DNA from: Marsupella aquatica
Taxonomy: Eukaryota > Plantae > Marchantiophyta
DNA: 64,000 nt
Direction: 5' to 3'
Assembly (NCBI GenBank): GCA_973895155.1
Contig: OZ316891.1
Coordinates: forward strand, 16,891,651 to 16,955,650
Both the position numbers and the translations under genes were made by a program. The notes beneath the pieces were generated by a model. That model saw nothing but the letters and a program-made list of their open reading frames with translations, was not told the origin of the DNA and did not search any database. Positions within the stretch are counted from its first letter, which is position 1. Every line of letters begins with the position of its first letter. Shown piece by piece: positions 1-63,971 of this stretch.

Positions 1-1782
1 TCCGGCTATGGGTCGGACCATCACGTTCCAGGAGTAAGGACCTGTGGCCGGTTTGTCCCCACACTTCCAAGGGTAGTGCGAGGGGACCCCAACCGGCAGA
101 GTAGCCCTGAGTCTCCCCCACCAGATGTTGCTCCCCCGAGCTTCGACGGCATAAAACAGACGGTGCAGGAATTTCAGGAGCGAATCAAGCAGGAGGAAGA
201 GGCCGCCCTGGCTAAGGAAAAGGATTTACCAGGAGGAGATTGGCCGGAGGACATCAGGCGGCTAGCCGAAAAAGGAAGCAAACCTCTAGCCACGATTGAA
301 GAGATCCGCAGGACGGCTTGGGAGCAGAGGCCACGATGGGCGATGCCGATCACTTCTACTTACTCCACCTACGCTAAGAATAGAGCCATGGAGTATGGTG
401 AGATGTGTGGGGAACTTGCGCTCGGCATCTTTGGAGAGGAGTTGGAGATAGGACCCTTTTTCCATAGGGAGCAGTTGGAGAAGCACCAATTAGAAGAAGC
501 GGTGGCTTTAGAGAGAAGCAAGAAGGACGAGGTCATTCGGCGGCTTAGGAGGATGGGAGCCGAGATTGAAGATCTAAGGGCGGCCAAGAAAGCCCAAGAT
601 GAACTGCGGATTAAACGACATGAGCTGAACATCATGCAGGGGCAGTTGGACGCCGCGCAGGCTGATAATCAGAATATCAAGGATAAACTGACTCAGACGC
701 AGGAAGAGTTGGCCGACACGATCAAAGAAAGGGAAAAGTGGAAGCAAGAGCTGAAGAATACAGAGGAGGCCCACATAACAGCCAACAGCCGGGCCATGGC
801 GGAGACCCAAAGAAAGGAATGGGCGTTGAAAGGGGAGCTCGAGAAAATCCGCGGAGCCCTTGAGCAGAAGGAGGTCGAGTTAGGGAAATCCTATCAAGGG
901 ATTATGGCGCTGCAGCAGGAGCTTGCGTCCCTGACGGCCAGCTTCAAGGCCGACCTAAGGGAGAAGGACGAGATGCTCGAACAGACTTACGCCAAGATGA
1001 ACCAGATGGAGTCTGTCATCATTGCAGAGCTCGACAAGGAGCTAAGAGCAACCCAGGAGGAGAGGGCTACCTTGAAGAAGGAATTGGAGGAAGCCCACAG
1101 GGAGCAGGAGGAGGCCAAAAACGAGCTGGAGGGGGCACGTAAGGACCTGGATGAAACCCAAGAGGAGTTGGAGGAAATCACGAGGAAGATGGAGAACCTA
1201 CAGCGGCGGGCCGACAACCAAACAGAGCGGCTGAAGAAACAAGCCGCAGTATTTAAATGCTTAGCTGCAGCAGGTCCATCTCCTGTTGGGACAAACCAGT
1301 TACCAGGGGTGGTAATTGCCGAAGGACAAGCCGCGCCACCTACACCAGTGCCGGAAGTAAGTGGGAAGGGGAAGGGACCAGCTGCCGAGCCACCAACGAA
1401 GAAGAAGCGGAAACCTTCAGGGTCAAGGAGTAATACGACTTCACAGGCCGTGGTGATCAAGGAGGTAGACCCAGCACCGACCCCAGACAGGGTCACGGCT
1501 AAGGATCCAACTACCCTAGGGGAAGGGGAGGCCGAAGCCGTGGGGGTGGCTGAAGCTGAAGCCGAGGGAGTGGCTGAAGCCGAAGCCGTGGGAGTGGCTG
1601 AGGCCGAAGCCGTGGGTATTGCCGAGGCCGGTGTCGAGGCTGAAGCCGAAGGTGGACCCAGTCAGGCCAATGGAGAGTTGACTCGGTCAAGGGCAGGTAA
1701 TCTGTCAGTAGGCGGGCCAACGGCAGTGGCTGAGGAGGAAGTGTTGGGGGCGTCCATTGAGGATCCACCACCGGTGTCGTGA
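1..1782 (+). CDS. C-terminal part of the family A LTR-encoded coiled-coil protein
   Basis: Open in frame from base 1 (SGYGSDHH...). Matches the C-terminal half of ORF 9004-12690. Confidence 0.85.
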   Translation, partial: SGYGSDHHVPGVRTCGRFVPTLPRVVRGDPNRQSSPESPPPDVAPPSFDGIKQTVQEFQERIKQEEEAALAKEKDLPGGDWPEDIRRLAEKGSKPLATIEEIRRTAWEQRPRWAMPITSTYSTYAKNRAMEYGEMCGELALGIFGEELEIGPFFHREQLEKHQLEEAVALERSKKDEVIRRLRRMGAEIEDLRAAKKAQDELRIKRHELNIMQGQLDAAQADNQNIKDKLTQTQEELADTIKEREKWKQELKNTEEAHITANSRAMAETQRKEWALKGELEKIRGALEQKEVELGKSYQGIMALQQELASLTASFKADLREKDEMLEQTYAKMNQMESVIIAELDKELRATQEERATLKKELEEAHREQEEAKNELEGARKDLDETQEELEEITRKMENLQRRADNQTERLKKQAAVFKCLAAAGPSPVGTNQLPGVVIAEGQAAPPTPVPEVSGKGKGPAAEPPTKKKRKPSGSRSNTTSQAVVIKEVDPAPTPDRVTAKDPTTLGEGEAEAVGVAEAEAEGVAEAEAVGVAEAEAVGIAEAGVEAEAEGGPSQANGELTRSRAGNLSVGGPTAVAEEEVLGASIEDPPPVS

Positions 1783-2703
1783 CGGTGCAAGGGCGCCGTT
1801 CCTTTTAGGGAGGGCGGACGTGGAGGGAGGAGGCGTGAGTGGGCAGGGCGGGCGTGGATCTCCACGTTTAGGATTAGGATCAGAACCAGGAGCGGCCCTG
1901 ACACTTAGCTTAGTGGGATTGCGGTCCCACTGGTAGGAGCAACACTTGTGCTCCTGCCTTGCTGTACATAGGTAGATTCGGGCAAGTAGATTACTGTTAA
2001 GTAGATTAGGCTTACGATGCAAAGAATGGCGGATCCACTACCAGGATAAGTACCTGGGCAGCGGGGAGCTCAGGGCCTCTTCTTTAGCAAGTTTTTAGTT
2101 TGCACCAGCCGGGCTGGGATCAAGTAGTACGAGAAGCTCTCGGTTAGTCATACAGTGACCCTTGTGTATATTCATGTTTCCTCATGCCTAAGAGTTGAAT
2201 AGAGTTGGCCTCACGGCTTAGTTCGCAGAACTTGTGTATGAGATGTACTGTTTGTATGGCAAGTGCATGGTATGACTCAGTCAGAATGAGTCATTTTGCT
2301 ATTTGTGTGTCGCATTAACTTGTGTGAAGAGTGCCCACATCAACAGAAGGAAGGAAAGTAAGCAGGGGAGTGAGAGTTGGATGTGTCGAGCTGAGAGAGG
2401 TCTTAGCGGCTTAACCAAGCCTATTGGGGATCATTCCGGCGGCGGAATCCAAACATACCTAACAAGACGGAGGGGAAGACAGGGGAAGACAGGGGAAGGC
2501 CTATATTAGGCCGGCTACGTATCTCATGACCCGATGAAGGATCTGTCCAGTATATGTGTGTAAAATGTTAATAGTAGTAGTAGAAGGTTAGCAGCGTCCC
2601 ATGCCGCTAAGCCGCGGAAACGGCCTCGCCAAGCACGAAACCTGCGGGAATCGGCTTGAGCTGGGGGGTTTCTTGGGTTTAGGGAGCCATGGGACGCACC
2701 ACA
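1..2703 (+). repeat. Family A 5' LTR (3' part only)
   Basis: Near-identical to 10909-13611. Ends ...GACGCACCACA just before the PBS. Confidence 0.95.
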
Positions 2704-2707
2704 TTTT

Positions 2708-2725
2708 TGGCGCTAGATGGAGGGG
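2708..2725 (+). promoter_or_regulatory. Primer binding site, probably tRNA-Asn
   Basis: TGGCGCTAGATGGAGGGG lies 4 nt after the LTR end. It is complementary, with one mismatch, to the plant tRNA-Asn 3' end as I recall it (CCCCTCCTTCTAGCGCCA). Confidence 0.8.
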
Positions 2726-2772: not shown

Positions 2773-5766
2773 ATGACTGACCTTACGCCGAGGGAAGAAA
2801 GAGTGATTCAACGGGAGAGAGCTCGACTGCAGCAGCTCACCGGGTGGCATGATACACATCGACTGAGAGGGGCAGAAAGAGCTGGTAGCTTCGAAACTGG
2901 AAGTGGCGTCGAAGAAGACATACCAGAAGAAGAGTCGGTAAGGAGAAGTGAGTCTCCAACCGACATGGGGGAACCAGAGGCACGGCCAGACGAGAGGCCA
3001 GGGACCAGATTGAGCCAGCGGTCGCGCATACATTACAAGGCATTTCATGGGAGAGGAGATGAGGATCCGGACGAATGGTTGGATGATTTCGAGGGAACCG
3101 CTGCAGCAAATGGAGAATCGGCCATCAAGATGCAGATTCTTCTCGGCCTGTTCAAGGGTGAGGCTAGGCCTTGGTACAGAGCATTAGATGTGGAAGATCA
3201 AGCCATCTGGGATATCTTCAAAACACTCTTTGTTAAGGAGTTTCGACCCATTGGAACTTCAGAACTAGCAGTGCTGAAGTTGGGACAACTTCGGTTCAAG
3301 GAGAACAAATCCTTCAGGAAGTTCTTGCAACGCTTTCAGAAACTGGTAAGACGTACAAAGACCAATGCATCTGAAGGTATGCAACTTCAATGGTTGGTGA
3401 ATGCTTTGCCACAGAAGATGAGTTTTGCAATTAGGAAGGAGAACCCGGAGACTTTAGCCGAAGCAATTAAGGATATTCAATTATACATTAATGCAGATAT
3501 CACAAGCCGGAAGAAACAGCTTAAGTCTGAGAGTTCCTCATCAGAGGAGGGATCACCCCATAAGAAAAAAGATAAGAAGAAGAAACATTCCAAGAAGTCT
3601 AGAAGTGATAAGTCAAGCTCGGATAGTGGGAGTAGCAAGAGTGAGTCATCTTCTAGTTCTGAAGAAGAAAAAACTAGGAAAAGGAAGGGCAGAAGGAGAG
3701 GGAAGACGAAAGTCAAGATGGAGGCTAAGCCACCAGATAACATCGTAGCCCTTACCGAGCAACTTAAGGCTATCATTGCAGAGGTAAAACCAAAGAAGAA
3801 GGTAGTACAGGAGGATAGCTCTGTATGGTGTGCCTTATGTTATAAAACCGGACACCATAAAGATGCGTGTCCTAAGCTTAATACTAATCATGTTCGGCAT
3901 GTGGCCGAGATCAGACCATGTCAGGGAGAAGTAGAGTACTTTTTGGGAGATGCCGCTGATAGTGTTTTCGGCATCAGTGAGACTGGAGCACGAGACCTAT
4001 CCAACAGACCTGCATCTCTGTGGTCAGGGTTAAGGAACAATCCAGGAGAGATGTATCCTCGGATTATTCAGAACCCGTCAGTACCTCCTAGGCCGAATGT
4101 GCAAAGATTTGCGGCGTGCTATAATTGTGGTCAACCTGGCCATTTTGCTAGAGAATGCCCGAATGCACGCAAACAGGGTGATGGACAACCAGCTCAGCTA
4201 TGTATGGGATGCCGACAGGAAGGTCATATGCTAGGGCAATGTCCTACTTGGTTGGCAGGCCTGGCCGCAAATCATAAGCTTTTGCCGATCAAGATCTTAC
4301 CGCCAGGTACTACCCCCGGAGGAGTTCAAATCAACCACATCGAACTAGGATGGCAAGAGGATGCCGAGGCAGAGTTCGTACCATCTGATGATGAGGCCGA
4401 AGCCCTATCAACCTTCTCAGAGGAGGATTTAGATCATGATTGCTACCGGGTCTCTACTCGATCTACCAGAAGGAAGGAAAGGTGGGATGGGCTGGCCAAA
4501 AATAAAGGGAAGGTTACGGAGGAAAGGATCGACTCTTCGTCAACATCAACAGAAGGAGAAGGGAGGGCTCCGGCAATACAGGTAAGCCATGAGCCCACCA
4601 GTGAAACCAATCCTTCACAAGATAGCGACTTCAATCGAGATCATCCTAAGTTGTTCTACCCCTCTGTTACGGCTAGTGTTAAGGAACAACTAAGAGAATT
4701 AGAAACCCTGGAGAATACCGAAGCCATTGCCAAGGATGTAAAACGAGCAAAAGCATTGTTTGCTTCGGAAGACCCAACAGCTGTGGAGACTAGCGTGGCA
4801 AAACTGGCCGAATCCAAGACGGAAACACCACCAGAAGAGAAGCCGATTGTTCCCTATGACCTGGCTAAAGATGTACTAGAATCTAGAGTCTCGGCAACAG
4901 TAGGTCAACTATTGAAAAATAGCCCGTACTTCCGGAAGCAATTAAGGAAGGCTATTCTCGGCAAGCCGAGATTACCCAAGGTAGCAACCAGATCCGACGT
5001 ACTAATGATAGAAGAAGATCAAGGAGCCCCAGCATTACCATTAATGATTCAAGGAGAATTATTACTACGGGTACCCATCGATGGAGGATCAGGGGTATGT
5101 ATTATGATTGATTCAACAGCAAAAGGGTGGGGTCTAACACCGGAGATGACTGGAAGAGTGTTGAACATGGCCAATGGATATCAGGTCATTCCGACGGGAG
5201 TGTTAACCGGCATCAAGACAGAGATAGGAGGTATCTTCTTTAGCATTAACTATGTAGTAATGAAGCCGGTAAATCCTACGTCATTCCGGCTATTGATTGG
5301 TAGGCCATGGCTGTACCTAGCCGAGGTAATAGAAGATTGGGGTAAAAAGCAGTTCACTTTCGGGACCCCCTCTATCACGGTATCCTGGGACACTAAGGAT
5401 GACCGTAGGAAAAGCATAAGGGAAGTAGATGGGTACGATAGTGGACTGGAGTCAGCCGATGAAGTACGTTGGTTAGAATGCCTCACTAACCTAACCGAAG
5501 AAGGTGTCTTTGGACCAGAGGTACCCCCCAGCGGATTATGGCAAGAACCAATGGAAGGTGACTTGGAAGAAGAAGACGAAGAGGTCGAGGACTGCTTTAC
5601 AATAGAATCCACCTTTTTAGCTGCAATTCCGGAGGAAGTTAAGGATGTAGACCAATTGGATGAAACGGCTAAGTGGGGAGCAGTAGCAGGGACAGTGGAT
5701 TTTCTGCAGGCGTTGTGGCAGAGCCGACGGGGTCCACAACGCCATCGATCATCGGCAAGGAATTAA
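2773..5766 (+). CDS. gag: Gag plus aspartic protease, family A
   Basis: Retrotransposon gag core (FHGRGDEDPDEWL), three CX2CX4HX4C zinc knuckles, protease motifs VPIDGGSG and LLIGRPWL. Confidence 0.93.
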   Translation: MTDLTPREERVIQRERARLQQLTGWHDTHRLRGAERAGSFETGSGVEEDIPEEESVRRSESPTDMGEPEARPDERPGTRLSQRSRIHYKAFHGRGDEDPDEWLDDFEGTAAANGESAIKMQILLGLFKGEARPWYRALDVEDQAIWDIFKTLFVKEFRPIGTSELAVLKLGQLRFKENKSFRKFLQRFQKLVRRTKTNASEGMQLQWLVNALPQKMSFAIRKENPETLAEAIKDIQLYINADITSRKKQLKSESSSSEEGSPHKKKDKKKKHSKKSRSDKSSSDSGSSKSESSSSSEEEKTRKRKGRRRGKTKVKMEAKPPDNIVALTEQLKAIIAEVKPKKKVVQEDSSVWCALCYKTGHHKDACPKLNTNHVRHVAEIRPCQGEVEYFLGDAADSVFGISETGARDLSNRPASLWSGLRNNPGEMYPRIIQNPSVPPRPNVQRFAACYNCGQPGHFARECPNARKQGDGQPAQLCMGCRQEGHMLGQCPTWLAGLAANHKLLPIKILPPGTTPGGVQINHIELGWQEDAEAEFVPSDDEAEALSTFSEEDLDHDCYRVSTRSTRRKERWDGLAKNKGKVTEERIDSSSTSTEGEGRAPAIQVSHEPTSETNPSQDSDFNRDHPKLFYPSVTASVKEQLRELETLENTEAIAKDVKRAKALFASEDPTAVETSVAKLAESKTETPPEEKPIVPYDLAKDVLESRVSATVGQLLKNSPYFRKQLRKAILGKPRLPKVATRSDVLMIEEDQGAPALPLMIQGELLLRVPIDGGSGVCIMIDSTAKGWGLTPEMTGRVLNMANGYQVIPTGVLTGIKTEIGGIFFSINYVVMKPVNPTSFRLLIGRPWLYLAEVIEDWGKKQFTFGTPSITVSWDTKDDRRKSIREVDGYDSGLESADEVRWLECLTNLTEEGVFGPEVPPSGLWQEPMEGDLEEEDEEVEDCFTIESTFLAAIPEEVKDVDQLDETAKWGAVAGTVDFLQALWQSRRGPQRHRSSARN

Positions 5767-8700
5767 ATACCAAGGGATCGGCATACAAGCCGATTACGAG
5801 GGCAGAACAAATTGAGGCCCTATTAGAAGCCGAGAGAGCACAGCGGCCTAACTCTCAGGAGCAAGAGGTGGATGAGATGGACAGACACGATCCAGAGCCA
5901 AGGCAGGAAGGGGAGCCGACCACTAATTCAAAACCGAATAGACCGGTAAGGGGACAATCTATGGACACCAAGGAAGGGACTGACTCGGCTAGTCCAACCG
6001 AGATCCTAGTTTATGGAGGTATGAGATTAGAGAGACTGGAAGCCGAACTGGACCCGAATTTGAAGAAGCAGATTAATATGATCCAAGCACGGCAATATCG
6101 AAAGCTCGACTTAGGAGAGGGAAGAGAACTGAACTTAGGGAGAAACCTAGCACCTGAGCTCGAGAAAGAGATCAGTGACTTATTGATTGAATTTCGGGAT
6201 GTGTTTGCATGGAGTCACCAAGATCTAAAGGGAGTAGATCCAACACTAGGGGAACATCGAATTGATCTCATGTTAGGAGCCAAATCATTTCGACAACCAA
6301 TTCGAAGGATGAACCCAAAGTATTCCCTGTTGGTCAAAACAGAAATCGACAAACTAGTGGAAGCTGGATTCATCACTCCAGTCCTGCATTCAGACTGGGT
6401 GTCTCCAATTGTGATAGTTCCCAAGAAAGCTGGACCCGATGGTAAACCGAAGATCCGGGTTTGTCAGGATTACAGGAAGCTGAATGAAGCAACATTAAAA
6501 GACCATTTTCCTTTACCGTTTACTGATATGGTACTAGACATGGTAGCCAGTCATGAACTATATTCATTCATGGATGGATACTCTGGTTATAACCAAATCA
6601 GGATTCGGCAGGAAGACCAAATCAAGACGGCCTTCATCACGGAATGGGGGATCTATGTCTTCAATCGTATGCCGTTTGAACTCTGCAACGCACCAGCTAT
6701 GTTCCAACGATTAATGGTGAACATTTTTCATGATTACTTGAGAAAGTTCATGGAAATCTTCATTGATGACTTTGCAGTATTCGGGAAGGCATCGAAACAT
6801 GCTAAATACCTCAGGAAAACCTTCATGAGATGTAGAGAGGTGGGTCTCAAGTTACACCCAGATAAATGTTTTTTTGCAGTAACCGAGGGGGTGCTACTAG
6901 GTCACAAGGTATCAAGGAAGGGCATTGAGATTGACAAAGGTAAGCTAGCAGTATGGCTAGATATCATGCAACCTAAGAACATAAAGGATGTAAGATCCTT
7001 CTTGGGATGCATTGGTTACTATCGTCGGTTCATCAAGGATTTTGCCAAGCTAGCTTTACCATTAACCAATATGCTCAAGGCAGGAGCAGACTTCGAACCC
7101 ACACCCGAACGAGTCACAGCGGTGGTAGAATTGAAGCAGATGTTAGTAGAGGCCCCAGTCATGATAGCACCGGACTGGAACAAAGATTTTCATGTTTTTG
7201 TAGATGTCTCGGGCTTCTGTATTGGCTCAGTACTAAGTCAGTTGGATGAGAAAGGAAGGGACCATCCCATATACTTCGCAAGCCGTCAGCTTGCCGATGC
7301 CGAACGGAACTACTCTACCACGGAAAGAGAAGCATTAGGAGTCATTTATTCTTGTAAAAAGTTTAGGCATTATTTACTAGGGTACAAGGTAATCTTTCAT
7401 ACTGATCATGAAAGTTTGAAGTACCTAGTCAATAAGCCGGACCTTACAGGCAGAGTAGCAAGATGGATTTTGCTATTACAGGAGTTTGACTATGAGCTGA
7501 GGATCAAGCCAGGAAAGTTACATGCCAATGCCGACTTCTTTTCAAGGATCACAGGTAAACCTGCCACGGATTGCATCGATGATCGATTCCCCGACGAGGA
7601 GCTATTCGTTGTGGAAATAGCTGGTACATGGTACCCTGAGATTTTACAATTTCTCAGCACTTCCAGATTACAGCCAGGATTAAGCCGAGAGCAAGCCGCA
7701 GTCTTTGTGCGGAAGGTCAGACAGTATCAGTGCATTAAAGGCATACTGCACAAGCATGGAATCAACGGCACGATTCAAAGGTGTTTGGAGAAGAGAGAGG
7801 TAAAACGAGTCCTACGGGCCATGCATGGAGAGGAGGCCGAAGAACATTTTGCCCCAGTAACCACGTCTAAGAAGATATTAAATGCCGGTTACTGGTGGCC
7901 CACCTTGCACAAAGATGTCTATCAGTTTATCAAACAATGCGATCCTTGTCAACGAGCGGGAGGACCAAGGGCGTCCACCAGGCATCCACTGCACCCTATT
8001 CTACCTCTGGCACCATTCGAGAAGTGGGGTATTGATTACATTGGACCTCTGAAACCACTGACCCACCCTCGACGGAACAAGTACATAATCCTGGCTACGG
8101 ATTATGCAACTAAATGGGTAGAGGCCAGACCAACAACAAAGGATGATGCAATTACTACGGCTAGATTCATGTATGAGCAGATCTTCACCAGGTATGGAGC
8201 ACCCCTAGAATTAGTTAGTGATAGAGGAACCCATTTTTTGAATGATATAATTAGTCGTTTAAATGAGCAGTATTTAGTTAAACATAGGCCTACTACTCCC
8301 TACCATCCAAAGGCAAACGGGTTGACAGAACGAGCAAACGGAATCATAGGAAAGATATTGAACAAGACAGTAGCTCAGAACAAACTCGATTGGGATGATA
8401 AATTGTTTGCTGCTGTTTTTGCTTACAATCTGGCCTATAAATCCACTACCGGTCATACACCCTTCTTCTTAACCTTTGGACAAGAAGCCCTGGTACCCAT
8501 GCAACTTGAGATACCGACATTTCAAGTTACAATTGAGGAAAGAGCCTCAGCGGAGGAGAGCCTAAAGGAGCGAGAATATAGGTTAGAAGCTTTAGAGGAA
8601 GCGAGAATGATTTCAGCCGAGAGAGTAGAATATAGACAGAATATCATGAAGCAGCAGTATGATAAAAGGTTAAAAGTAGTTAGTATTCATACCGGTGATC

Positions 8701-8939
8701 TTGTGCTACTTTATGACAGTAGGTATAGTAGGTTTCCAGGAAAGCTTTACACTCGCTGGTTAGGACCCTTTAGAGTAACCATGATGTTCCCCAATGGCTC
8801 CGTGCAATTGGCCAACATTACGGGAGAGGTATATCCAGTTCGCATCCATTATGACCGCCTCAAGAAATACTATATGGACGAAGATGAAGTTGTTCGCGAG
8901 GACGCTTCACAATTAAGTGGGGAGCTATGTGATGCCTAG
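5673..8939 (+). CDS. pol: Pol (RT, RNase H, integrase) in the -1 frame relative to gag-PR
   Basis: RT motifs CQDYRKLN, MDGYSGYNQI, FIDD. RNase H motifs VDVS and TDH. Integrase HHCC, WGID/SDRG/LTER and GPF. No chromodomain. The stop codon lies inside the 3' LTR. Confidence 0.96.
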   Translation: MGSSSRDSGFSAGVVAEPTGSTTPSIIGKELNTKGSAYKPITRAEQIEALLEAERAQRPNSQEQEVDEMDRHDPEPRQEGEPTTNSKPNRPVRGQSMDTKEGTDSASPTEILVYGGMRLERLEAELDPNLKKQINMIQARQYRKLDLGEGRELNLGRNLAPELEKEISDLLIEFRDVFAWSHQDLKGVDPTLGEHRIDLMLGAKSFRQPIRRMNPKYSLLVKTEIDKLVEAGFITPVLHSDWVSPIVIVPKKAGPDGKPKIRVCQDYRKLNEATLKDHFPLPFTDMVLDMVASHELYSFMDGYSGYNQIRIRQEDQIKTAFITEWGIYVFNRMPFELCNAPAMFQRLMVNIFHDYLRKFMEIFIDDFAVFGKASKHAKYLRKTFMRCREVGLKLHPDKCFFAVTEGVLLGHKVSRKGIEIDKGKLAVWLDIMQPKNIKDVRSFLGCIGYYRRFIKDFAKLALPLTNMLKAGADFEPTPERVTAVVELKQMLVEAPVMIAPDWNKDFHVFVDVSGFCIGSVLSQLDEKGRDHPIYFASRQLADAERNYSTTEREALGVIYSCKKFRHYLLGYKVIFHTDHESLKYLVNKPDLTGRVARWILLLQEFDYELRIKPGKLHANADFFSRITGKPATDCIDDRFPDEELFVVEIAGTWYPEILQFLSTSRLQPGLSREQAAVFVRKVRQYQCIKGILHKHGINGTIQRCLEKREVKRVLRAMHGEEAEEHFAPVTTSKKILNAGYWWPTLHKDVYQFIKQCDPCQRAGGPRASTRHPLHPILPLAPFEKWGIDYIGPLKPLTHPRRNKYIILATDYATKWVEARPTTKDDAITTARFMYEQIFTRYGAPLELVSDRGTHFLNDIISRLNEQYLVKHRPTTPYHPKANGLTERANGIIGKILNKTVAQNKLDWDDKLFAAVFAYNLAYKSTTGHTPFFLTFGQEALVPMQLEIPTFQVTIEERASAEESLKEREYRLEALEEARMISAERVEYRQNIMKQQYDKRLKVVSIHTGDLVLLYDSRYSRFPGKLYTRWLGPFRVTMMFPNGSVQLANITGEVYPVRIHYDRLKKYYMDEDEVVREDASQLSGELCDA
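5697..5756 (+). promoter_or_regulatory. Candidate -1 programmed ribosomal frameshift signal
   Basis: G_GAT_TTT heptamer in the gag frame (5697-5703), 5-nt spacer, 10-bp stem GGCGTTGTGG/CCACAACGCC. Loop GCCGA is complementary to TCGGC at 5752-5756. Confidence 0.8.
8911..8927 (+). promoter_or_regulatory. Polypurine tract, family A
   Basis: AATTAAGTGGGGAGCTA directly precedes the TG of the 3' LTR. Confidence 0.85.
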
Positions 8940-11900
8940 ACAGGAATCACTCGGCCGGTTAAGTGGGTAAAGCAGGAAGGCACCCTAGGAACACCTTAGT
9001 ATAGTGACAAAACAAGGAAAATATAAACAATTAGGGGCAACCATGGAACCCGGGCAGAGGCCGGAGGTAAGGCTGAGGGTGAAAACCCGATTAGGGTTAG
9101 GGCGCGTTAAGCGTCGGCGGCTAGGAAGGATCAACGGGAAGAAGGACCGGCAGAGGAGAGGGGTAAGGAGCGCTTGCAGGAGATGGTGGCTCATTTGCGA
9201 GCACGAACTAGGTAGACGACTACGGGAGGCCAACTACTGTCAGCTGCTTAGGCAAGCACTCGGGGAGAGAGTAGATACCGACGATCAACCTAAGGAGGGT
9301 ATGAGCAACGTCAATCAAGCGGCACATTTCTGGGGATGCCTGTTCGAACGGGCAACTGAGTACATCAAGACTTACGAGGACGAGGAGTCAGAAAGGGCAG
9401 CTCGAGAACGGCAGGAGCTCGCTCAATTGTGGGAGCTGCAGAACACGGCTTTCTTAGGAGGCGAACTCATCAAGGACGAGTTCCTGTGGACGCCTACTTC
9501 CAATCAACTCGACGATCTTCTGTTTTGCAAAGACAGCGTCGTCGGCATCCGAGAGGCCATCAAGAACTGCAACGACATACATTGGGAATTAAAGGGTAGC
9601 ACAGAAAGGTGGACCCAGGCAACGGTGCTAGGAGAAACCTCCACGGCAGTAGAGATGAAGAGGAAGGGAGCCGTCAACGATGAAGCCACCCCGGCAAAAA
9701 GAACGAGGTCGGCGGCACCAAAGAAGCCAGCCGAGCAGCAGAGCAGGAGGCAGGGAGAAGCCGAAGAGGAGGAGGTCGATCCCATCAAGGCCATTCCAAC
9801 CAGGGATGACACCTGGAAGGGCTGGGCGGCAACCCTACCGGTGGAGGTGCAACTACATTTTGCACGGGAGGAGGATGCATGCTTTACGGCCATGCAGACC
9901 AAGAAGTACCAAGGCTTCATGGCCGGATCCGGCTTGGAGGCCTTTGTAAGATTACCATGGCTGAAGCCGGAGGTACCGGAGTCAGACCTATTAGAATTCG
10001 TGGGGTCATGGGAACCCGAGACCAATTGCACGAGGATATATGGGAAGGATTTCTATCTTACTCCCAAGGTGATTGCCGAAGTGTTTGGCTTGCCGATGGG
10101 CAATAAGACCAAAGTTGATACCAGGAAGACCTTGCCTGACAAGGAGTTCCGGTCGTTCCCCGGGCCATCAACGAAGAATGGCTTCTTCCGGAACACCTGC
10201 ACCAACCCGCACATAGGAGAGATGATCGACTTCTTGCGGGTGACCATGCATTGTAACTTGCCGAGGGCAGAGATCGGCAAGGCACAGGTCTATCTGGCAG
10301 AAAGGCCAAACCCAAGCCGGGACTACAACGGGTACCTCCTCAACCAATTGAAGAAGATCTTAAAGGAGGAGCAGCAGGTAATCGGCATGGGGAGCATGTC
10401 GCGGCTTGGCTATCACATGCCGCTGTTGTGCCGGTATGCCAGAGGTCAGACTTTTGCCCCGGTACTTCCCCTGCAGGTAAGGGCACCCGAGGAAGCTCCA
10501 ACGCCGAGGCCGTTGGCTGAGAAGCCTCAACCACCTGTTAGTCCTACGATCGAGCAGGTGTTTAGGCCCAGGAAGGAAGACTTGCCGATGCAGCAACCAG
10601 GCATGCAGAGTCTGCTGAAACTACTGGAGAAAGAAAAGAAATCGGCATCGGCAACAACAACGGCAACGGCAACAATGCAGGACACTACTACAGAGGTAGG
10701 CCTACACCGGCTCACAAGAGAAAACCCCTTTGCTGGAGACAAGGAGAGAATCAGGCCGGAATCCAAGCCAGGTGTTCGAATGTACGTGGGAACCTCAAGC
10801 TCCGAATCTGAGGCAGAATTGCCTGAAGCTCCTACCAAGGAAGAGGAGAGGGAGAAGCCGGAAATCCAAGAGGTAGAGGAGGCAGTGGAGGACTGCAGCC
10901 ATGATAATTCCGGCTATGGGTCGGACCATCACGTTCCAGGAGTAAGGACCTGTGGCCGGTTTGTCCCCACACTTCCAAGGGTAGTGCGAGGGGACCCCAA
11001 CCAGCAGAGTAGCCCTGAGTCTCCCCCACCAGATGTTGCTCCCCCGAGCTTCGACGGCATAAAACAGACGGTGCAGGAATTTCAGGAGCGAATCAAGCAG
11101 GAGGAAGAGGCCGCCCTGGCTAAGGAAAAGGATTTACCAGGAGGAGATTGGCCGGAGGACATCAGGCGGCTAGCCGAAAAAGGAAGCAAACCTCTAGCCA
11201 CGATTGAAGAGATCCGCAGGACGGCTTGGGAGCAGAGGCCACGATGGGCGATGCCGATCACTTCTACTTACTCCACCTACGCTAAGAATAGAGCCATGGA
11301 GTATGGTGAGATGTGTGGGGAACTTGCGCTCGGCATCTTTGGAGAGGAGTTGGAGATAGGACCCTTTTTCCATAGGGAGCAGTTGGAGAAGCACCAATTA
11401 GAAGAAGCGGTGGCTTTAGAGAGAAGCAAGAAGGATGAGGTCATTCGGCGGCTTAGGAGGATGGAAGCCGAGATTGAAGATCTAAGGGCGGCCAAGAAAG
11501 CCCAAGATGAACTGCGGATTAAACGACATGAGCTGAACATCATGCAGGGGCAGTTGGACGCCGCGCAGGCTGATAATCAGAATATCAAGGATAAACTGAC
11601 TCAGACGCAGGAAGAGTTGGCCGACACGATCAAAGAGAGGGAGAAGTGGAAGCAAGAGCTGAAGAATACAGAGGAGGCCCACATAACAGCCAACAGCCGG
11701 GCTATGGCGGAGACCCAAAGAAAGGAATGGGCGTTGAAAGGGGAGCTCGAGAAAATCCGCGGAGCCCTTGAGCAGAAGGAGGTCGAGTTAGGGAAATCCT
11801 ATCAAGGGATTATGGCGCTGCAGCAGGAGCTTGCGTCCCTGACGGCCAGCTTCAAGGCCGACCTAAGGGAGAAGGACGAGATGCTCGAACAGACTTACGC

Positions 11901-13611
11901 CAAGATGAACCAGATGGAGTCTGTCATCATTGCAGAGCTCGACAAGGAGCTAAGAGCAACCCAGGAGGAGAGGGCTACCTTGAAGAAGGAATTGGAGGAA
12001 GCCCACAGGGAGCAGGAGGAGGCCAAAAACGAGCTGGAGGGGGCACGTAAGGACCTGGATGAAACCCAAGAGGAGTTGGAGGAAATCACGAGGAAGATGG
12101 AGAACCTACAGCGGCGGGCCGACAACCAAACAGAGCGGCTGAAGAAACAAGCTGTAGTATTTAAATGCTTAGCTGCAGCAGGTCCATCTCCCGTTGGGAC
12201 AAACCAGTTACCAGGGGTGGTAATTGCCGAAGGACAAGCCGCGTCAACTGCACCAGTGCCGGAAGTAAGTGGGAAGGGGAAGGGACCAGCTGCCGAGCCA
12301 CCAACGAAGAAGAAGCGGAAACCTTCAGGGTCAAGGAGTAATACGACTTCACAGGCCGTGGTGATCAAGGAGGTAGACCCAGCACCGACCCCAGACAGGG
12401 TCACGGCTAAGGATCCAACTACCCTAGGGGAAGGGGAGGCCGAAGCCGTGGGGGTGGCTGAAGCTGAAGCCGAGGGAGTGGCTGAAGCCGAAGCCGTGGG
12501 AGTGGCTGAGGCCGAAGCCGTGGGTATTGCCGAGGCCGGTGTCGAGGCTGAAGCCGAAGGTGGACCCAGTCAGGCCAATGGAGAGTTGACTCGGTCAAGG
12601 GCAGGTAATCTGTCAGTAGGCGGGCCAACGGCAGTGGCTGAGGAGGAAGTGTTGGGGGCGTCCATTGAGGATCCACCACCGGTGTCGTGACGGTGCAAGG
12701 GCGCCGTTCCTTTTAGGGAGGGCGGACGTGGAGGGAGGAGGCGTGAGTGGGCAGGGCGGGCGTGGATCTCCACGTTTAGGATTAGGATCAGAACCAGGAG
12801 CGGCCCTGACACTTAGCTTAGTGGGATTGCGGTCCCACTGGTAGGAGCAACACTTGTGCTCCTGCCTTGCTGTACATAGGTAGATTCGGGCAAGTAGATT
12901 ACTGTTAAGTAGATTAGGCTTACGATGCAAAGAATGGCGGATCCACTACCAGGATAAGTACCTGGGCAGCGGGGAGCTCAGGGCCTCTTCTTTAGCAAGT
13001 TTTTAGTTTGCACCAGCCGGGCTGGGATCAAGTAGTACGAGAAGCTCTCGGTTAGTCATACAGTGACCCTTGTGTATATTCATGTTTCCTCATGCCTAAG
13101 AGCTGAATAGAGTTGGCCTCACGGCTTAGTTCGCAGAACTTGTGTATGAGATGTACTGTTTGTATGGCAAGTGCATGGTATGACTCAGTCAGAATGAGTC
13201 ATTTTGCTATTTGTGTGTCGCATTAACTTGTGTGAAGAGTGCCCACATCAACAGAAGGAAGGAAAGTAAGCAGGGGAGTGAGAGTTGGATGTGTCGAGCT
13301 GAGAGAGGTCTTAGCGGCTTAACCAAGCCTATTGGGGATCATTCCGGCGGCGGAATCCAAACATACCTAACAAGACGGAGGGGAAGACAGGGGAAGACAG
13401 GGGAAGGCCTATATTAGGCCGGCTACGTATCTCATGACCCGATGAAGGATCTGTCCAGTATATGTGTGTAAAATGTTAATAGTAGTAGTAGAAGGTTAGC
13501 AGCGTCCCATGCCGCTAAGCCGCGGAAATGGCCTCGCCAAGCATGAAACCTGCGGGAATCGGCTTGAGCTGGGGGGTTTCTTGGGTTTAGGGAGCCATGG
13601 GACGCACCACA
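8928..13611 (+). repeat. Family A 3' LTR (4684 bp)
   Basis: TG...CA ends. Boundaries confirmed by the TSD-flanked solo copy at 42175-46829. Followed by GTGTC (predicted TSD). Confidence 0.96.
9004..12690 (+). CDS. LTR-encoded protein of family A, about 1130-1228 aa depending on start (GTG 9004, ATG 9043 or ATG 9301)
   Basis: Uninterrupted 3.7-kb ORF wholly inside the LTR. Globular block (GLEAFVRLPW...EF...LTPKVIAEVFGLP...NGF...C), long coiled coil, basic KKKRK motif, EAEAVGVA repeats. Intact in the solo copy. Confidence 0.88.
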   Translation: MTKQGKYKQLGATMEPGQRPEVRLRVKTRLGLGRVKRRRLGRINGKKDRQRRGVRSACRRWWLICEHELGRRLREANYCQLLRQALGERVDTDDQPKEGMSNVNQAAHFWGCLFERATEYIKTYEDEESERAARERQELAQLWELQNTAFLGGELIKDEFLWTPTSNQLDDLLFCKDSVVGIREAIKNCNDIHWELKGSTERWTQATVLGETSTAVEMKRKGAVNDEATPAKRTRSAAPKKPAEQQSRRQGEAEEEEVDPIKAIPTRDDTWKGWAATLPVEVQLHFAREEDACFTAMQTKKYQGFMAGSGLEAFVRLPWLKPEVPESDLLEFVGSWEPETNCTRIYGKDFYLTPKVIAEVFGLPMGNKTKVDTRKTLPDKEFRSFPGPSTKNGFFRNTCTNPHIGEMIDFLRVTMHCNLPRAEIGKAQVYLAERPNPSRDYNGYLLNQLKKILKEEQQVIGMGSMSRLGYHMPLLCRYARGQTFAPVLPLQVRAPEEAPTPRPLAEKPQPPVSPTIEQVFRPRKEDLPMQQPGMQSLLKLLEKEKKSASATTTATATMQDTTTEVGLHRLTRENPFAGDKERIRPESKPGVRMYVGTSSSESEAELPEAPTKEEEREKPEIQEVEEAVEDCSHDNSGYGSDHHVPGVRTCGRFVPTLPRVVRGDPNQQSSPESPPPDVAPPSFDGIKQTVQEFQERIKQEEEAALAKEKDLPGGDWPEDIRRLAEKGSKPLATIEEIRRTAWEQRPRWAMPITSTYSTYAKNRAMEYGEMCGELALGIFGEELEIGPFFHREQLEKHQLEEAVALERSKKDEVIRRLRRMEAEIEDLRAAKKAQDELRIKRHELNIMQGQLDAAQADNQNIKDKLTQTQEELADTIKEREKWKQELKNTEEAHITANSRAMAETQRKEWALKGELEKIRGALEQKEVELGKSYQGIMALQQELASLTASFKADLREKDEMLEQTYAKMNQMESVIIAELDKELRATQEERATLKKELEEAHREQEEAKNELEGARKDLDETQEELEEITRKMENLQRRADNQTERLKKQAVVFKCLAAAGPSPVGTNQLPGVVIAEGQAASTAPVPEVSGKGKGPAAEPPTKKKRKPSGSRSNTTSQAVVIKEVDPAPTPDRVTAKDPTTLGEGEAEAVGVAEAEAEGVAEAEAVGVAEAEAVGIAEAGVEAEAEGGPSQANGELTRSRAGNLSVGGPTAVAEEEVLGASIEDPPPVS

Positions 13612-18863: not shown

Positions 18864-20353
18864 CCACTGTCCGTCCAGGACAGCTCCTTCCTTGGGCGCG
18901 GCCCGGGTTCCCCCTCGTACCTATCCATCACCAACTGACCGCCCTGACCTCAGGACATGCTCATGGCCCAAATAGCATAGCTTGTCCTAAAGCTTGTCCC
19001 AAGCTTGTCTCAACACGTCGGGACCAGAACGGCCCCGACTCGAACACCCACTCCCGATTCTCCCCACTGATGGTCTAGGGACCGAGCACCCTTGGGACTC
19101 CTCAGGACTCAGCCTCCATACCTACTTGGCCTTGCCTCCCCAACGCAAGCTCCCTTGGGAGACTGAACGCGGCTTGGCTGTTATTTGGCAGGATTTGGCA
19201 AGCGGGCGAGCTAACACCCGCAAACCACAAGAACCCATGTCACCCCGGACCCAGCTGAGCTGAGGAGGGCGTAGTACTCCTCAAGAGCTTTCCAATGCAC
19301 CTAAGAAGTCCTCCAACGGACTTCCCGTTGGGAAGATATCGTCATTTCCGTTTGGCGGTTTCTTTTAGTGTTGCGACCGCCGCGGCTCACGACTTCGGCT
19401 CGGCCTTAGCCCCCAGAGAGACACCACTCCCCTCATATATGCTTCTAGAGACCTGCTGTCACGTCGTAGGCTTCGGCCTTAACTCAGACTTCAGCTTAGA
19501 CGGGCACATCCCTCGTAAATCTGAGGGTTCGGGCAGGAAGGGAAGCACGTAATGCACCTTATTCTCGTAAACTAGCGCTAAGTGCGCATACTGCTAAATA
19601 CGGACACCTCCTAGGTATGGTTTGTGTTCCGCCGCCGGAACGTACCTTAGTCGATAGCAGGATCGACCCCGGCTTAAGGGCTTCTAAGCCTTCGTGCTGT
19701 CCGCCTTCGATCCGGATTCGATGATACAGGTCCTCAACCCGTGCTCGCAACCACTTACCCGCAGGCTGCACCCTGTGCACGTCTCGGGTAGTGCGTTCGG
19801 CCTGGCGCTGCCACCCATATACGAGAAACCCACACACATATGCGCACACATGCATACAATCTCGATTTACACGAAGGAAAATGATGGGAAAGGATTTTAC
19901 TACAAAGGGAACATATGCGTACACTTAGTTGACACGACAGCCCTGGAATGCACAGGTTCAAGGCCGAGGGTGCACACTACAACGGAGCCCGGCTCCGCAC
20001 TCGCCCGACGAGCTTAGTCCTACCCCCTCCCCTTGGTACTCTGTCATTCCCAGAGGTCGAGACTCCTCGCATGTCCCGCGGATGTCCGACTCTGAAACTA
20101 AAAACCCCCCCTGCCTCTACCAAGGGGTGCACTAAATACTAAGAGCCAAAGAACGGGGTGTCCTCTCGCCGAAGATTCGCTGACTAAGGTCCTAACTAAG
20201 CTGACAGTCAAGCCGGAAAACGGCTGTGTCTTATTAGAAGATCCTAATCTACGCAGGCTGGATAGCAGGGCAGCGCTGCGGTACCTAAGGCAGGTGCCTG
20301 TCCCAAGAGCCTGACTAAGCCAATCCTAATCCTAATCTATTCCTACTTCGCCG

Positions 20354-22201
20354 CTAATACCTGGCACGCTTGCCAGAGCCGCCCGAATGGGAACGGCCAT
20401 CCCGCTGCCTTCGAAGCCTGTCATTGTCCGCCTTGAGGAGCTGGACCTGGTCCAGCAGAGATTCGTTCTCTTGCCTCGCCGCGTCCGTCTCCTCTGCTGC
20501 CTCCTGACATGCCTCCTTCAGCTGCTGGGCGTCGCTCGTCAGTTTACTCGCCAGCTGGTCCTGCTTCTCGGCCTCGGTTTGGAGCCGCGCCATCTCGGCC
20601 TGCAGCGTGGCTATCTTCGTCGCGTCCCGCTGGGCTCGCTCCTCGGCTTTCTCCAGGTCTTTCTGCCAGGTGACAGCTTGTTTCTTCAAACTATCAATCT
20701 GGTTCCGGAGTCGTGTAATCTCGGCCTCGTTCCCAGCTTTGGCCTATTCGGCTAGGGCGGTAAGAGCGTACGCCTTTGCTAACAACTCATCGGCGGCTGC
20801 AACCTTGGGTCGTAGTTGCAGAAGCTCAGCCTCTTGAGCCGCCACTTCGTTCTTTAGGTACACGGACTCCACCCGGTACCGCTCTATCCTCTGAAGGGCC
20901 TCCGACTGGGCCCGACCTGCCTTTACGGCGGCAACCAACTCCTGATTGAAGAAACAGGCTACCTTCCAGGCCATGAACTCCCCGGTATCCCGGGCAATTT
21001 GATGAGAGAAATCTCCCAGAAGCCCGTTCAGAAATGTACCCTGTACGAAGAGTTCCGGGTGGTCCAAGTTGTGCCTGTCCGGATTTGGGCACGGGCAGAC
21101 ATCAACACGCGCAGGGGCCGGGGCAGTGACGTCCAGCCCTGGGGACATAACGTTGGAAGGGGCTGGAGTGTCCTCCTGCAGCGATGTCCGGTTCTCCGGA
21201 ATTGCCACCGGCGGGTCCTTGGGAGACCCGGGTTCGGGTAAGACCTCTGCCGTACCAACTTCTGTACTTAGCCCGGCTAGTTGGGTCGCATCAACGGTTG
21301 CGACGACCGACCCCTCCGGCGCCTCCTCGGTTACGATTACAGCTATTTGTGGAGGTGGGGTGGGTGAAGCTGGCGTGCCCACTGGACTTCGGGCCTCGGG
21401 TTGGGGCCGTCTCTCCAATGCCGGAAAAACCCACCTAGCTGGGACCAGCTTTGTAACGTTGATGCGGGGAAGGGTTCGTCGATCAAACCGGGCGTACCAC
21501 TCAAGAATGATTTCGATATGGCTAGCGAAATACGCCTTCCCGCCAATGTACAGCATCTTCCTTCGCCGCTCCATCTCTTCATGGAATTTCTTAGCGAAGT
21601 ACGACGCCCATTTCCTAGGTCGATAGTTCTCGACCTGGATAACCTGGGCGGCGAAGATCTCCCCCCGGGGTTCCATCATGTGGAGAGCGTACCTCTGGAA
21701 CTCCAGCCGCTCAGCTATCTCGGGCATGAGGCAGGTCCTCATCACGAACCCGTTGTCTACTGATCCCTCTGAGGGAAAACTTGAAGATTGGTACTTGGCC
21801 CCCTTGCCCCCGGGAGCCCGTGATTCGACTCGATGGTCACCTTTGGGTAACCCGAAGATCATCTTGAGCCGTTCTTCTGTGAGGGACATATTCCTTCCCC
21901 GCAGCCGAGTCTGTTGACGTACGTCGTCATAATTCTTGACGAATTCTGTCATGTCCTCCCCGTAGTACCTGCAAGTGTTTCAGGGGAGAGAGGCGAGGTG
22001 CTCAAATCCCTGAGTCTTCAGGTACACCGCATGCTTGGGATGGAGGATGTTGCTGTGAACGTTTTCCCCCATGCGATGCATCGTCACCTTGGCTACGGCT
22101 ACCGTGGCCAACGGTAACCCGGATGCAGTGGCGGATTCCTTCCTCTTCTTTCCCCGTGACTGACTCGGGGAAGGTGATACTTCCCCATCCTCCCGATCGG
22201 G
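20354..22201 (-). pseudogene. C-terminal part of the family D LTR-encoded ORF
   Basis: ORFs 21980-22240 (below 22202), 20744-21952 and 20354-20689 share one frame, separated by single stops. Aligns with the family A LTR protein (EF...LT...IFGLP.G...NGF...C...PR.EI..AQV) and ends in a coiled coil. Confidence 0.8.
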
Positions 22202-23317
22202 CCTGGTGTCACTTGCCTCTCCAACGGTTAATACGTGCAAACCGCACTTTTCTTCGCTTAAACCGTTGGTATCGTATTACGGGGTCGTGGAGGGACGCTA
22301 TTTGGATTCTTTTCACACCAGGATGAGTATTTTGGTTTCCGCTCCCGGAAATGTAGGTTTTGATCAAGTCTACCGACTACCCTCACCCCACAGCTTTTGA
22401 TCAAGTCCTGCCGACTACCCCACTACACCTTCACTCGGAGTCACCCAAAGAGTGCTGTCACCACCCCTACTCACAAGGCCGACTCAAACCAAGCAAGTTT
22501 CTTCAAATCATAGAACGGGAGAACACAATTCGGAAAGCGAAAAAGGGAGAAGGAACACACAACAAAAGCCCATCAAGTCAAATGTACAGATCCATATCTC
22601 TTGGGAAAAACGATACACATTGCATGAGTAACCCGGCCTCCTGCCGTCTACTCAACTCCTGCCTCTCCGGACAATGAGTATGGCTCCCCCTCACTACTCT
22701 GAACACGCTTTCAAACTCCTCAGGCTCCACTCTATCCCTCCTTGCTAACTTCACACTGAGTCCCCCTAACTACTTCGGGGCTATCCCCCTAAATACTGAA
22801 AAATCACACCAAAGCACCCCTCACAGGGTCACAACGGTGGCGGCTACCCTAGCGGCGCCGCTAAAACCTTGCACTAAGAGAAATCCTTAAACTGAAGAGG
22901 AGCATGCGGCACACACATGCTGCTAAAACCCTAAACCCAAAACAAGGGGGCCGACGGTGCCTTCGACGGCGCCCCAACAGTACACGTGAACCCTGAAAGT
23001 GAGAGGCACCCCAAAATGGCCGAAACTAGGTGCCCTTCCAAGTGCACACCTGAGCTCACCCCTGGATAGCTCTTCTTTTCCTGCTTCCGAATCACTAAGT
23101 CGCTCCCTCAACGGACTTCAGACGCCTGAGTTATGGCCATTTCCGTACCGCAAAAACATAAGTTCTCCAGGCCATAACTTGCTCATCCTGGCTCCGTTTG
23201 AGGAGCGCCGCCTCTTGTTGGAATCAGCTCCGCGAGCTCATCCCAACAAGCCCATGAGTGACCCCCCACTAAAATGTTGGAAATCTGGAGGCCGTACACC
23301 CACGTCCGTACGCCTAT

Positions 23318-25174: not shown

Positions 25175-25605
25175 CCATGCATCCCGAAATCAATTTCTCA
25201 ATCACCAATCCCGTCACCCGTGGCAATGTCAATTCCCTGGCCCGAAACAGCCCCCGTAGCCCGATCACTTAAATTCTCTCAATTTCCCGTCACCACTCCG
25301 TGCGGCCGCCACTAATGCCTGGAAGAATGACGCCAGCAAGCCCCACTAATCCACCATGAAAGAGAGAGCTTCAAAAATAATTAGAATCTGGAGAGAGCTT
25401 CCGGCAAGAGAGAGAAGAACCCCGTTTTTGCTTTCGGCAATGAGAGGGTCGTGCAAAAGGAAGAGGGAAAGAAAAAGGAAGGAAAAAAAAATAGAACCGA
25501 AAAAACTCCTGGCGCCTTCGCCATGCGCCCCGGCCCATTTCTCGGGCCTTACCCTTGCGTCCTCCTGCGCGCGGCCCTATGCAGGGCGCGCGGCCATTCC
25601 TCCCG

Positions 25606-25922
25606 GCTCGCGGGAGGCCCTTCAACTCCCCCCCGCTCGCGTGATCCTCCCAGCTCGCGGGAGGCCCTTTAACTCCCCCCCGCTCGCGTGATCCTCCCAG
25701 CTCGCGGGAGGCCCTTTAACTCCCCCCCGCTCGCGTGATCCTCCCAGCTCGCGGGAGGCCCTTTAACTCCCCCCCCCCCGCTCGCTTGCGCTCCTTCAGC
25801 TCGCGGAGCCTCATTAATTGCCCGGGCACGCAGCCCTATGGGCTCGCGAGGCAGCCCCTTCAGCTCGCGGAGCCCCATTAATCGCCCGGGCACGCAGCCC
25901 TATGGGCTCGCGAGGCAGCCCC
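25606..25922. repeat. GC-rich tandem repeats in the B LTR (47-bp unit x about 3.7, then 64-bp unit x2)
   Basis: GCTCGCGGGAGGCCCTTTAACTCCCCCCCGCTCGCGTGATCCTCCCA starts at 25606, 25653, 25700 and 25747. CCTTCAGCTCGCGGAGCC... starts at 25793 and 25857. Confidence 0.9.
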
Positions 25923-32883: not shown

Positions 32884-32903
32884 AAAACAAAAGACCACAC
32901 TTA

Positions 32904-59722: not shown

Positions 59723-59742
59723 AAAACAAAAGACCACACTTA

Positions 59743-63965: not shown

Positions 63966-63971
63966 TCTTTT

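Follow-up and report, generated by a model that had tools for sequence, protein, structure and literature searches.

Long terminal repeats (LTRs) of Gypsy retrotransposons were found to carry a long protein gene in a 64,000-nucleotide stretch of the genome of the liverwort Marsupella aquatica (GenBank assembly GCA_973895155.1, contig OZ316891.1, positions 16,891,651 to 16,955,650, forward strand), hereafter the window. Purifying selection acts on the open reading frame (ORF), which lies between the LTR ends and occurs both in the paired LTRs of an element and in solo LTRs. Our preferred reading, to which we give a probability of roughly 55%, is that its product would be a DNA binder resembling the VANC proteins of VANDAL transposons and would keep its own element family from being silenced, the gene having come into the LTR through a shift of the polypurine tract (PPT). 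By self-comparison and ORF listing, the window is a nest of Gypsy elements, some inserted in others, here sorted into families A to D.

A gene between the ends of the LTR

The copies on which the argument rests are the following.

8928..13611, + strand: family A 3' LTR, 4684 bp, TG..CA (self-comparison, sequence, contigs)
9043..12690, + strand: family A LTR ORF, 1215 aa from the first ATG; likely true start at nt 9301 (1129 aa)
12691..13611, + strand: non-coding tail of the family A LTR, 921 bp, likely element promoter/R/U5 (sequence)
1..2703, + strand: partial family A 5' LTR that includes the last 593 codons of the LTR ORF (self-comparison, tblastn)
42175..46829, + strand: family A solo LTR with an intact 1207-aa ORF at 42290-45913, target site duplication (TSD) GGAGG (self-comparison, tblastn)
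22207..36981, - strand: family B element B1, TSD CCTGG, LTRs at 22207-26285 and 32904-36981, single gag-pol ORF (self-comparison, Pfam)
23318..25174, - strand: family B LTR ORF, 618 aa; copies at 34015-35871 and 50316-52172, partial copy at 60854-62605 (ORF listing)
19457..38248, - strand: family D solo LTR D1, TSD CCTGC, split by B1 and 4012 bp long once that insertion is removed
38832..40649, + strand: family D fragment D2, 3' part of the ORF and LTR tail, 78% identity to D1 (self-comparison)

An earlier note, made from the letters of this DNA, had described an uninterrupted ORF of about 1200 codons in a 4.68-kb family A LTR and a 618-codon ORF in a 4.08-kb family B LTR, and both are found as described; in family B the identical 618-aa ORF is present in each LTR of B1 (4079 and 4078 bp). 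For the third case, about 880 codons in a solo LTR of roughly 4.0 kb, the size is borne out (882 codons running in frame from 37782 to 20354 across the B1 insertion), but this copy is broken by two in-frame stops and by B1 itself, so that the note's "complete" gene per LTR holds for families A and B and not for the D copy here. The LTR limits, which the note had called confirmed by TSDs, are so for the solo A LTR, B1 and D1 (all 5-bp duplications), but not for the full-length A element (about 15.6 kb), whose left end and TSD lie beyond the window; the only A copy with a confirmed TSD is the solo LTR. That each full element holds two gene copies is seen directly in B1, and family A agrees with this as far as its partial 5' LTR extends. 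The two family A LTR sequences (1-2703 and 10909-13611) differ by 15 mismatches in 2703 positions (99.4% identity), and LTR end 13611 is joined to position 2704, the start of the primer binding site (PBS), in contigs of 4/4 public runs, which confirms that the LTR end adjoins the PBS.

The ORFs are 600-1200 codons long and fill 45-75% of the LTR. From stop to stop, the family A ORF comprises 1233 codons (8989-12690), and the longest ORF in 300 shuffles reached 371 codons for A and 299 for B. Translation in family A probably starts at Met87 (codon 87, nt 9301), since the protein from there resembles an 'M..FW' N-terminus and since the ATG at 9043 is preceded at a distance of only about 12 nt by a TATAAA box. 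The 'M..FW' stretch opens the D protein and homologs P0133, P0200, P0135 and P0143; A is similar to it by eye, its N-terminus having gone unscored against this stretch in BLAST.

Selection on the protein is seen most clearly in family D, where D1 and D2 have a dN/dS of 0.29 over 310 codons (Fisher p 3e-12), with 84% identity and 2 gaps in the coding part as against 73% and 15 gaps in the non-coding tail. In the conserved domain of family A, 31 of 40 variants are synonymous where 10 are expected (p 5e-12; the best 40 of 74 variants in contigs of four runs). For D1 and D2 the ratio, which the earlier note had proposed to check, is not near 1. Family B copies differ by 0-1 codons and are too alike to inform on selection. 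The accessory gene in the LTR is a property of the lineage, not of a single copy. Among 16 public runs listed, 14 of them with all or part of the stretch, there is no RNA run.

In runs X1 and X2 the A LTR has about 3.9 times the summed contig depth of the internal region; this hints at numerous solo LTRs, although depth is not equal to copy number. Eleven of the best 12 of 22 indels in contigs of the public runs lie at 12579 or beyond, a weak line of support.

Classification of the elements

The elements are Ty3/Gypsy non-chromovirus retrotransposons, with domains in the order GAG, protease (PR), reverse transcriptase (RT), RNase H (RH) and integrase (IN), LTRs of the form TG..CA, a PBS, a PPT and a TSD. 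The internal region of family A (2704-8927) contains:

2704..2725, + strand: family A PBS, TGGCGCTAG.. type (sequence; contig joint 13611 to 2704)
2773..5766, + strand: family A gag-protease ORF (Pfam Retrotrans_gag and zf-CCHC; a protease-like stretch aligns to the B polyprotein)
5673..8939, + strand: family A pol, RT-RH-IN, its last codons overlapping the PPT and LTR start (Pfam, sequence)

The gag-protease and pol ORFs of family A overlap in different frames at 5673-5766, and family B has a single gag-pol ORF. Among named RT relatives, those of Calypogeia (66-68%) and Riccia (57-58%) come nearest, which points to a leafy liverwort as the likely host.

Tat, Ogre and Retand were excluded, as pol carries only RT_RNaseH and no archaeal-type extra RNase H; neither an extra RNase H nor a chromodomain was found in family A pol by Pfam scan. 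Phygy of REXdb, described with a 4-bp NCGN TSD, a tRNA-Trp PBS, a length of 7.7-10 kb and no extra ORF (PMC6317226 Additional file 5), is likewise a non-chromovirus of bryophyte type, with an internal region almost entirely taken up by the polyprotein. It was excluded because TSD length (5 bp here), PBS, size (14.8-15.6 kb here, B1 being 14.8 kb) and the extra ORF all differ. Athila has several traits in common with the elements: no additional RNase H, a 5-bp TSD, a size of 15 kb, and in family B a tRNA-Asp-like PBS, one base in 18 different from the tRNA-Asp PBS printed for FIDEL. The Athila-type extra ORF (PF03078, PF20167) of OTA non-chromoviruses is also in sense orientation, downstream of pol and with a related domain, as far as the accessible parts of PMC6317226 and PMC7264820 show. 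The layout is unlike that of Athila, however: the PPT overlaps the integrase end and the ORF lies past it, inside the LTR, and is thus duplicated and survives in solo LTRs.

The RT phylogeny that the earlier note had called for, run with LG+G4 and no mixture model on subsets of 63 rows and then on 29 of those 63, places the elements in the group with a pol-proximal LTR start (92/92), and RT-RH grouping with three seed-plant rows is rejected (p-AU 0.004); the comparison covers those three rows, whose Athila label is inferred, and no REXdb references. Two metagenome loci apparently with an extra RNase H (L050, L055) branch apart in the RT trees. Another element apparently of that kind, L053, has an internal LTR-like duplication (1893-2842 and 4587-5494, 78%) that encloses a PBS, a gag-like 593-aa ORF and a PPT in a three-LTR-like layout.

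Probable route of the gene into the LTR

The LTR start is marked by a cassette of hairpin, PPT and TG, which in both A and B overlaps the integrase end:

8892..8927, + strand: conserved hairpin and PPT cassette marking the LTR start (also in B)

The cassette pattern occurs in 11 of 78 metagenome loci: nine have it where pol ends or shortly beyond (L001-L004, L006-L009 and L034, with TGA for TGT in L002), L005 has it after an extra ORF, and one is a poor match. In L003, L004, L006 and L008 the cassette is followed by a long ORF; for the three of these ORFs that are complete, no second cassette was found in the 0.2-1.1 kb seen downstream. In L004 and L007 the LTR start is an inverted-repeat match to the end before the PBS. 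The hairpin just 5' of the PPT, GTTCGCGnGGnC, is kept across an alignment of 11 sequences. The RNAalifold structure includes its stem and a pairing of TCACA with the LTR-start TGTG; there is just a single compensatory change.

The order is different in the circular L005: pol, a purine tract without TG, a homologous 745-aa ORF, the full cassette, an LTR of about 1 kb, and the PBS. In L023 a PPT and TG directly follow the ORF. Profiles built without circular use of these ORFs recover L005, L046, L020, L006, L008 and L003 among 1584 ORFs (E 4e-9 to 8e-3), the L004 ORF reaching only E 0.7. The reverse profile recovers A. The pol-proximal elements form a group with RT-RH (92/92) and with integrase (SH 88, quick tree); L005, L010 and L020 are its sister, and L022 and L023 lie further out. 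Grouping of L005, L010 and L020 with the metagenome half of the pol-proximal clade is rejected (p-AU 0.015). With 921, 1111 and 897 bp, respectively, the non-coding parts at the LTR ends of A, B and D are about as long as the whole L005 LTR.

As the sister L005 has an internal ORF and an LTR of about 1 kb, the gene likely came to lie in the LTR through a PPT shift, the simplest reading being an ancestral internal gene and one upstream shift of plus-strand priming. A relic of a distal PPT after the A ORF was looked for and rejected (2 of 28 comparisons at or below 1%, one of them at an unrelated place). The earlier note's suggestion that an accessory gene had moved into U3 thus gains from the pol-proximal LTR start in relatives and the internal gene in the sister; that its present position is U3 we infer.

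The encoded protein

Families A and D share a domain of about 190 residues (E 4e-18), and family C has the same domain.

9853..10482, + strand: conserved domain, residues 271-480, Transposase_32/ATHILA-like, with a predicted VANC21-like fold (profiles, model)
11392..12174, + strand: predicted coiled-coil region, about residues 784-1044, then a basic stretch like a nuclear localization signal (NLS) and a low-complexity tail (crude heptad scan)
48229..49204, + strand: family C, a decayed fourth homolog of the domain, cut by B2; homology at about 48229-48812 (tblastn E 9e-15 with A, 5e-29 with D)

A profile of A, C and D found 68 homologs among 1.84 billion representative proteins, and four of ten homolog clusters looked up carry Calypogeia fissa names. 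Among 42 proteins scanned (33 of the 68 homologs and nine locus ORFs), five weaker homologs match PF20167 over the domain, below the cut-off. In a protein atlas the A domain neighbours Transposase_32 and ATHILA at 0.87-0.88; family B has rows with these names at 0.83-0.84, which are leads only. Pfam returned coiled-coil noise only for the window LTR ORFs and PF10536, the plant mobile domain (PMD), was unmatched. Word-indexed protein searches with the A and B domains gave no matches, PDB sequence searches with A queries A4 and A3 gave nothing significant, IMG/VR held no relatives, and BFVD gave one unnamed row (A0A890CAY5, E 5e-3).

The AlphaFold model of the A domain, from a 58-row alignment, is confident (pLDDT 91.6, pTM 0.88). 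Compared with 48,161 solved chains by VIA-align, its top match is VANC21 (9LNK, Z 7.6, rmsd 4.0, 196/210 residues), the next reaching Z 2.2; against the VANC21 structure 9LNJ, Z is 7.8, with 196-197 of 210 residues aligned across both structures. Foldseek, which the earlier note had recommended, lists VANC21 third by E value (1.8) and highest by query TM-score (TMq 0.46, other listed rows at most 0.19). Thus the domain of A, C and D is predicted to have a VANC-like fold, the comparison having been run for the family A domain. NLS-like stretches are present in the LTR-ORF proteins by an NLS-like scan, and no transmembrane segment is indicated (best 19-residue Kyte-Doolittle mean 0.98-1.13). The family B protein has the same general outline as A; its single-sequence model has pLDDT 32.

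Family-specific CG words

VANC-like binding predicts short words accumulated along the element. In an unbiased scan against synonymous-codon shuffles, TGCCGA is the top 6-mer of A coding DNA (26 vs 5.4 expected, z 8.8, null maximum 4.9), and GCCG words are at or near the top separately in A gag-pol and in the A LTR ORF. Over gag, pol and LTR ORF of A, the pattern WWGCCG occurs 73 times vs 24.4 expected, with both strands and all frames contributing; B shows no excess of it (15 vs 17.4). For ACGG it is B that has the excess (100 vs 65.8), A having none (54 vs 55.1). The non-coding DNA of B also holds a repeat array:

25598..25946, - strand: CGCGAG-rich tandem repeats preceding the B ORF, 14 in the non-coding DNA of B against 1.2 expected

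TCCGGA-type words are enriched in L003, L004, L006, L007 and L008, in coding and non-coding DNA. In L005 the palindrome AGCGCT is found 8 times vs 0.2, in non-coding DNA only. That A and B of one genome have different words argues against host mutation bias. CpG observed/expected is 0.58-1.11 in the elements vs 0.35 in a neighbouring CACTA remnant, which may simply be older. Family-specific CG words are thus enriched along the elements as a VANC-like binder predicts, binding itself being putative. The anti-silencing and chromatin-targeting functions that the earlier note had listed as options gain support from these words together with the predicted fold.

Proposed mechanism and alternatives

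In the preferred reading, the ancestor would have had the gene between pol and an LTR of about 1 kb, with a purine tract on either side; plus-strand priming would then have moved to the pol-proximal tract, so that gene and old LTR became a new LTR of 4-5 kb. The gene may have its own promoter at the LTR 5' end, as suggested by the TATA box and CT-rich leader upstream of the ORF in D1, and genomic RNA would start in the non-coding tail of about 1 kb, making the gene U3. The protein, made up of N-domain, VANC-like domain, coiled coil and NLS-like stretch, would form oligomers, move into the nucleus and there bind the short CG word of its family, candidates being WWGCCG for A, ACGG or CGCGAG for B and WCCGGW for the metagenome group, and the element would stay unmethylated and transcribed. 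Recombination between LTRs would leave one whole gene, so that solo LTRs could act in trans. The wider claim, that a bryophyte-wide Gypsy clade uses its LTR as an anti-silencing cassette, with its own CG word even in synonymous gag and pol codons and with solo LTRs acting in trans, is put forward tentatively, at rather less than even odds.

Several observations weigh against this reading. On selection, the family A 3' LTR and solo LTR have a dN/dS of 0.69, not significant. The match to VANC21 is middling (Z below 8, 8% identity, Foldseek E 1.8), the VANC-associated DUF1985 and DUF287 were unmatched by Pfam in window ORFs and the 42 scanned proteins, and homology of the B and A domains is unproven (1/200 shuffles outscored the comparison, hhalign probability 1.4%). 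The same fold family includes the host silencing proteins MAIN and MAIL1, so that the fold leaves the direction of effect open. As for the words, that of A lies mostly in coding DNA where VANC motifs lie in non-coding tandem repeats, D is without a clear CG word, L012 has WCCGGW at 30 vs 12.7 although it is outside the clade, and CGs have changed between recent A copies no less often within the word (4/47) than elsewhere (17/188). WWGCCG, ACGG and WCCGGW were picked after seeing the data, and an order-3 Markov scan of 7-9-mers gave none significant after correction (best 0.39), the signal being that of the codon-shuffle tests. In the phylogeny, the 92/92 support of the gene-in-LTR clade is not starred, both LTR ends are visible only in L004 and L007, no metagenome locus has a TSD, and the internal ancestral state rests mainly on L005.

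Part of this evidence would fit the same layout with a different role, in which a sequence-specific DNA binder acts as a transcriptional activator or tethers complementary DNA or integrase to chromatin, silencing marks being kept. Fold match and words indicate DNA recognition at most; the words span the whole element including gag and pol, the CGs within them are unprotected between recent copies, and the elements here are nested in one another. On the other hand, the sole solved structural match is an anti-silencing factor, every candidate word has a CG, and CpG is less depleted than in the CACTA remnant, with the caveat of age given above. We regard this role as unlikely, yet a serious competitor. 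A functional LTR gene whose product contacts protein or RNA, as a silencing suppressor or as a particle scaffold through its coiled coil, the words then being due to mutation bias or a host factor, is improbable. Coiled coil and disordered regions do make up most of the protein, the control L012 has its CCGG excess and D no clear word, and published models of Athila-domain and VANC proteins are coiled-coil pentamers that make numerous contacts with the host (PMC13547354, accessible part); but A and B have different words on both strands in one genome, and the VANC-like domain is the part common to families.

A membrane or movement protein of env-like type, a role put forward in the past for the sense-strand extra ORFs of Athila, would suit the sense position downstream of pol and the kinship with ATHILA-type ORFs (PMC7264820, accessible part); it is very unlikely in view of the NLS-like stretches, the soluble VANC-like fold and the lack of a hydrophobic segment in the scan above, and the particle-trafficking option of the earlier note loses ground with it. 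That the ORF is a mere passenger, captured and decaying, or an assembly or duplication artefact resembling part of an LTR, agrees with the broken C and D copies here and is scarcely credible given the ORF in TSD-bounded solo LTRs, the LTR-PBS joint in 4/4 runs, the strong purifying selection, the 68 homologs and the same layout in other contigs.

Relation to known systems

Genes in terminal repeats are known from mouse mammary tumour virus (sag) and human immunodeficiency virus (nef), where they are coded in U3, and the Cassandra terminal-repeat retrotransposon in miniature has 5S RNA in its LTR; the elements described here are like these in having a gene in the terminal repeat and unlike them in that theirs are much shorter or non-protein, and unrelated in sequence. 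Xenopus 1A11/Xretpos, considered as a precedent for an LTR ORF, was not borne out as one in the accessible part of PMC4585706. What follows on other published systems likewise reflects the accessible parts of the papers cited. In plant LTR elements, extra ORFs have been placed in the internal region (PMC6317226, PMC7264820, PMC11963269), and ORF0 of Retrosat2 lies upstream of gag-pol. No plant LTR-encoded gene of this kind, and no published clade with the same LTR-ORF layout, was found in the literature searched, whose coverage of subscription journals was poor. The elements therefore apparently combine known parts (Gypsy, an Athila-type extra ORF and a VANC-like fold) in an undescribed layout.

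VANC proteins of VANDAL (Mutator-like) transposons, with which a core fold appears to be shared (PMC5735166, PMC10398659, PMC13547354), bind short family-specific motifs accumulated in the element and demethylate it (PMC5735166). The LTR-gene product is like VANC in having a globular domain and a coiled coil, in being encoded by an accessory gene of the element and in the family-specific short words. It differs in being encoded by a Gypsy LTR retrotransposon, inside the LTR, in its divergent sequence, and in its bryophyte host, VANC being reportedly related in structure to MAIN/PMD and described as dicot-specific (PMC13547354); its activity is a prediction. The trait of motifs in non-coding repeats is seen in B (tandem CGCGAG array), not in A (word dispersed in coding DNA rather than in non-coding tandem arrays) or D (no clear word), and in L003-L008 the words lie in both coding and non-coding DNA. 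PMD proteins (PF10536) of Ogre/Tat elements and the hosts' MAIN and MAIL1 are reported structural kin of VANC with Gypsy-encoded members, known in angiosperms (PMC5418596). The LTR ORFs differ from them in leaving PF10536 unmatched and in their host, PMD being described from angiosperms, and the host members act in silencing (PMC5418596, PMC13547354).

Other features of the window

A second family B element contributes two further LTR-ORF copies, one of them cut:

49205..62607, - strand: second family B element, B2, whose 5' LTR is interrupted at about 62607 (self-comparison, sequence)

The PBS of family B (32855-32903; 59694-59742) is 20 bases from the LTR end, and its 5' leader has a 30-bp repeat twice, at 32708-32737 and 32774-32803. 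The sequence that cuts the B2 5' LTR is AT-rich (62608-64000), terminates with a tRNA-Asp-like PBS (+ strand, about 63968), and is probably the LTR of a further nested element. The A element is inserted in the CACTA-like decayed remnant (DUF4216, E 4e-4) at 13612-19456. The A solo LTR interrupts a split solo LTR of about 1.07 kb (41131-46863, apparent 4-bp TSD TTAG), which has tandem repeats at 41202-41422 and no long ORF.

A motif TTCCGGCGGCGGAA..AAACATACC is present at 13342, 46569 and 2434 (+), 19640 (-) and 47617 (+). In A and D, which have no other DNA similarity, it precedes the LTR 3' end by 180-270 bp, and a looser version is seen by eye in family B; it is a possible R/U5 or promoter signal.

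Implications

The function of the extra ORFs of plant retrotransposons is an open question in the accessible text of PMC6317226 and PMC7264820. If the wider claim of a bryophyte-wide anti-silencing cassette is true, LTR retrotransposons would have in it their first sequence-specific anti-silencing system, Athila-type extra ORFs would gain a function, and the VANC/PMD fold would have been present in retrotransposons before angiosperms. With a confident protein model, a candidate mechanism and a predicted word per family, the proposed function is directly testable. Orthogonal pairs of protein and word might be put to use as epigenome tools, along the lines suggested for VANC (PMC5735166, accessible part). 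LTR finders with short length limits and surveys of ORFs between LTRs would miss such genes. The layout also redefines the solo LTR, which is here a whole gene and not a scar; if the wider claim holds, solo LTRs, the product of the host's main route of removal, would keep making the antidote.

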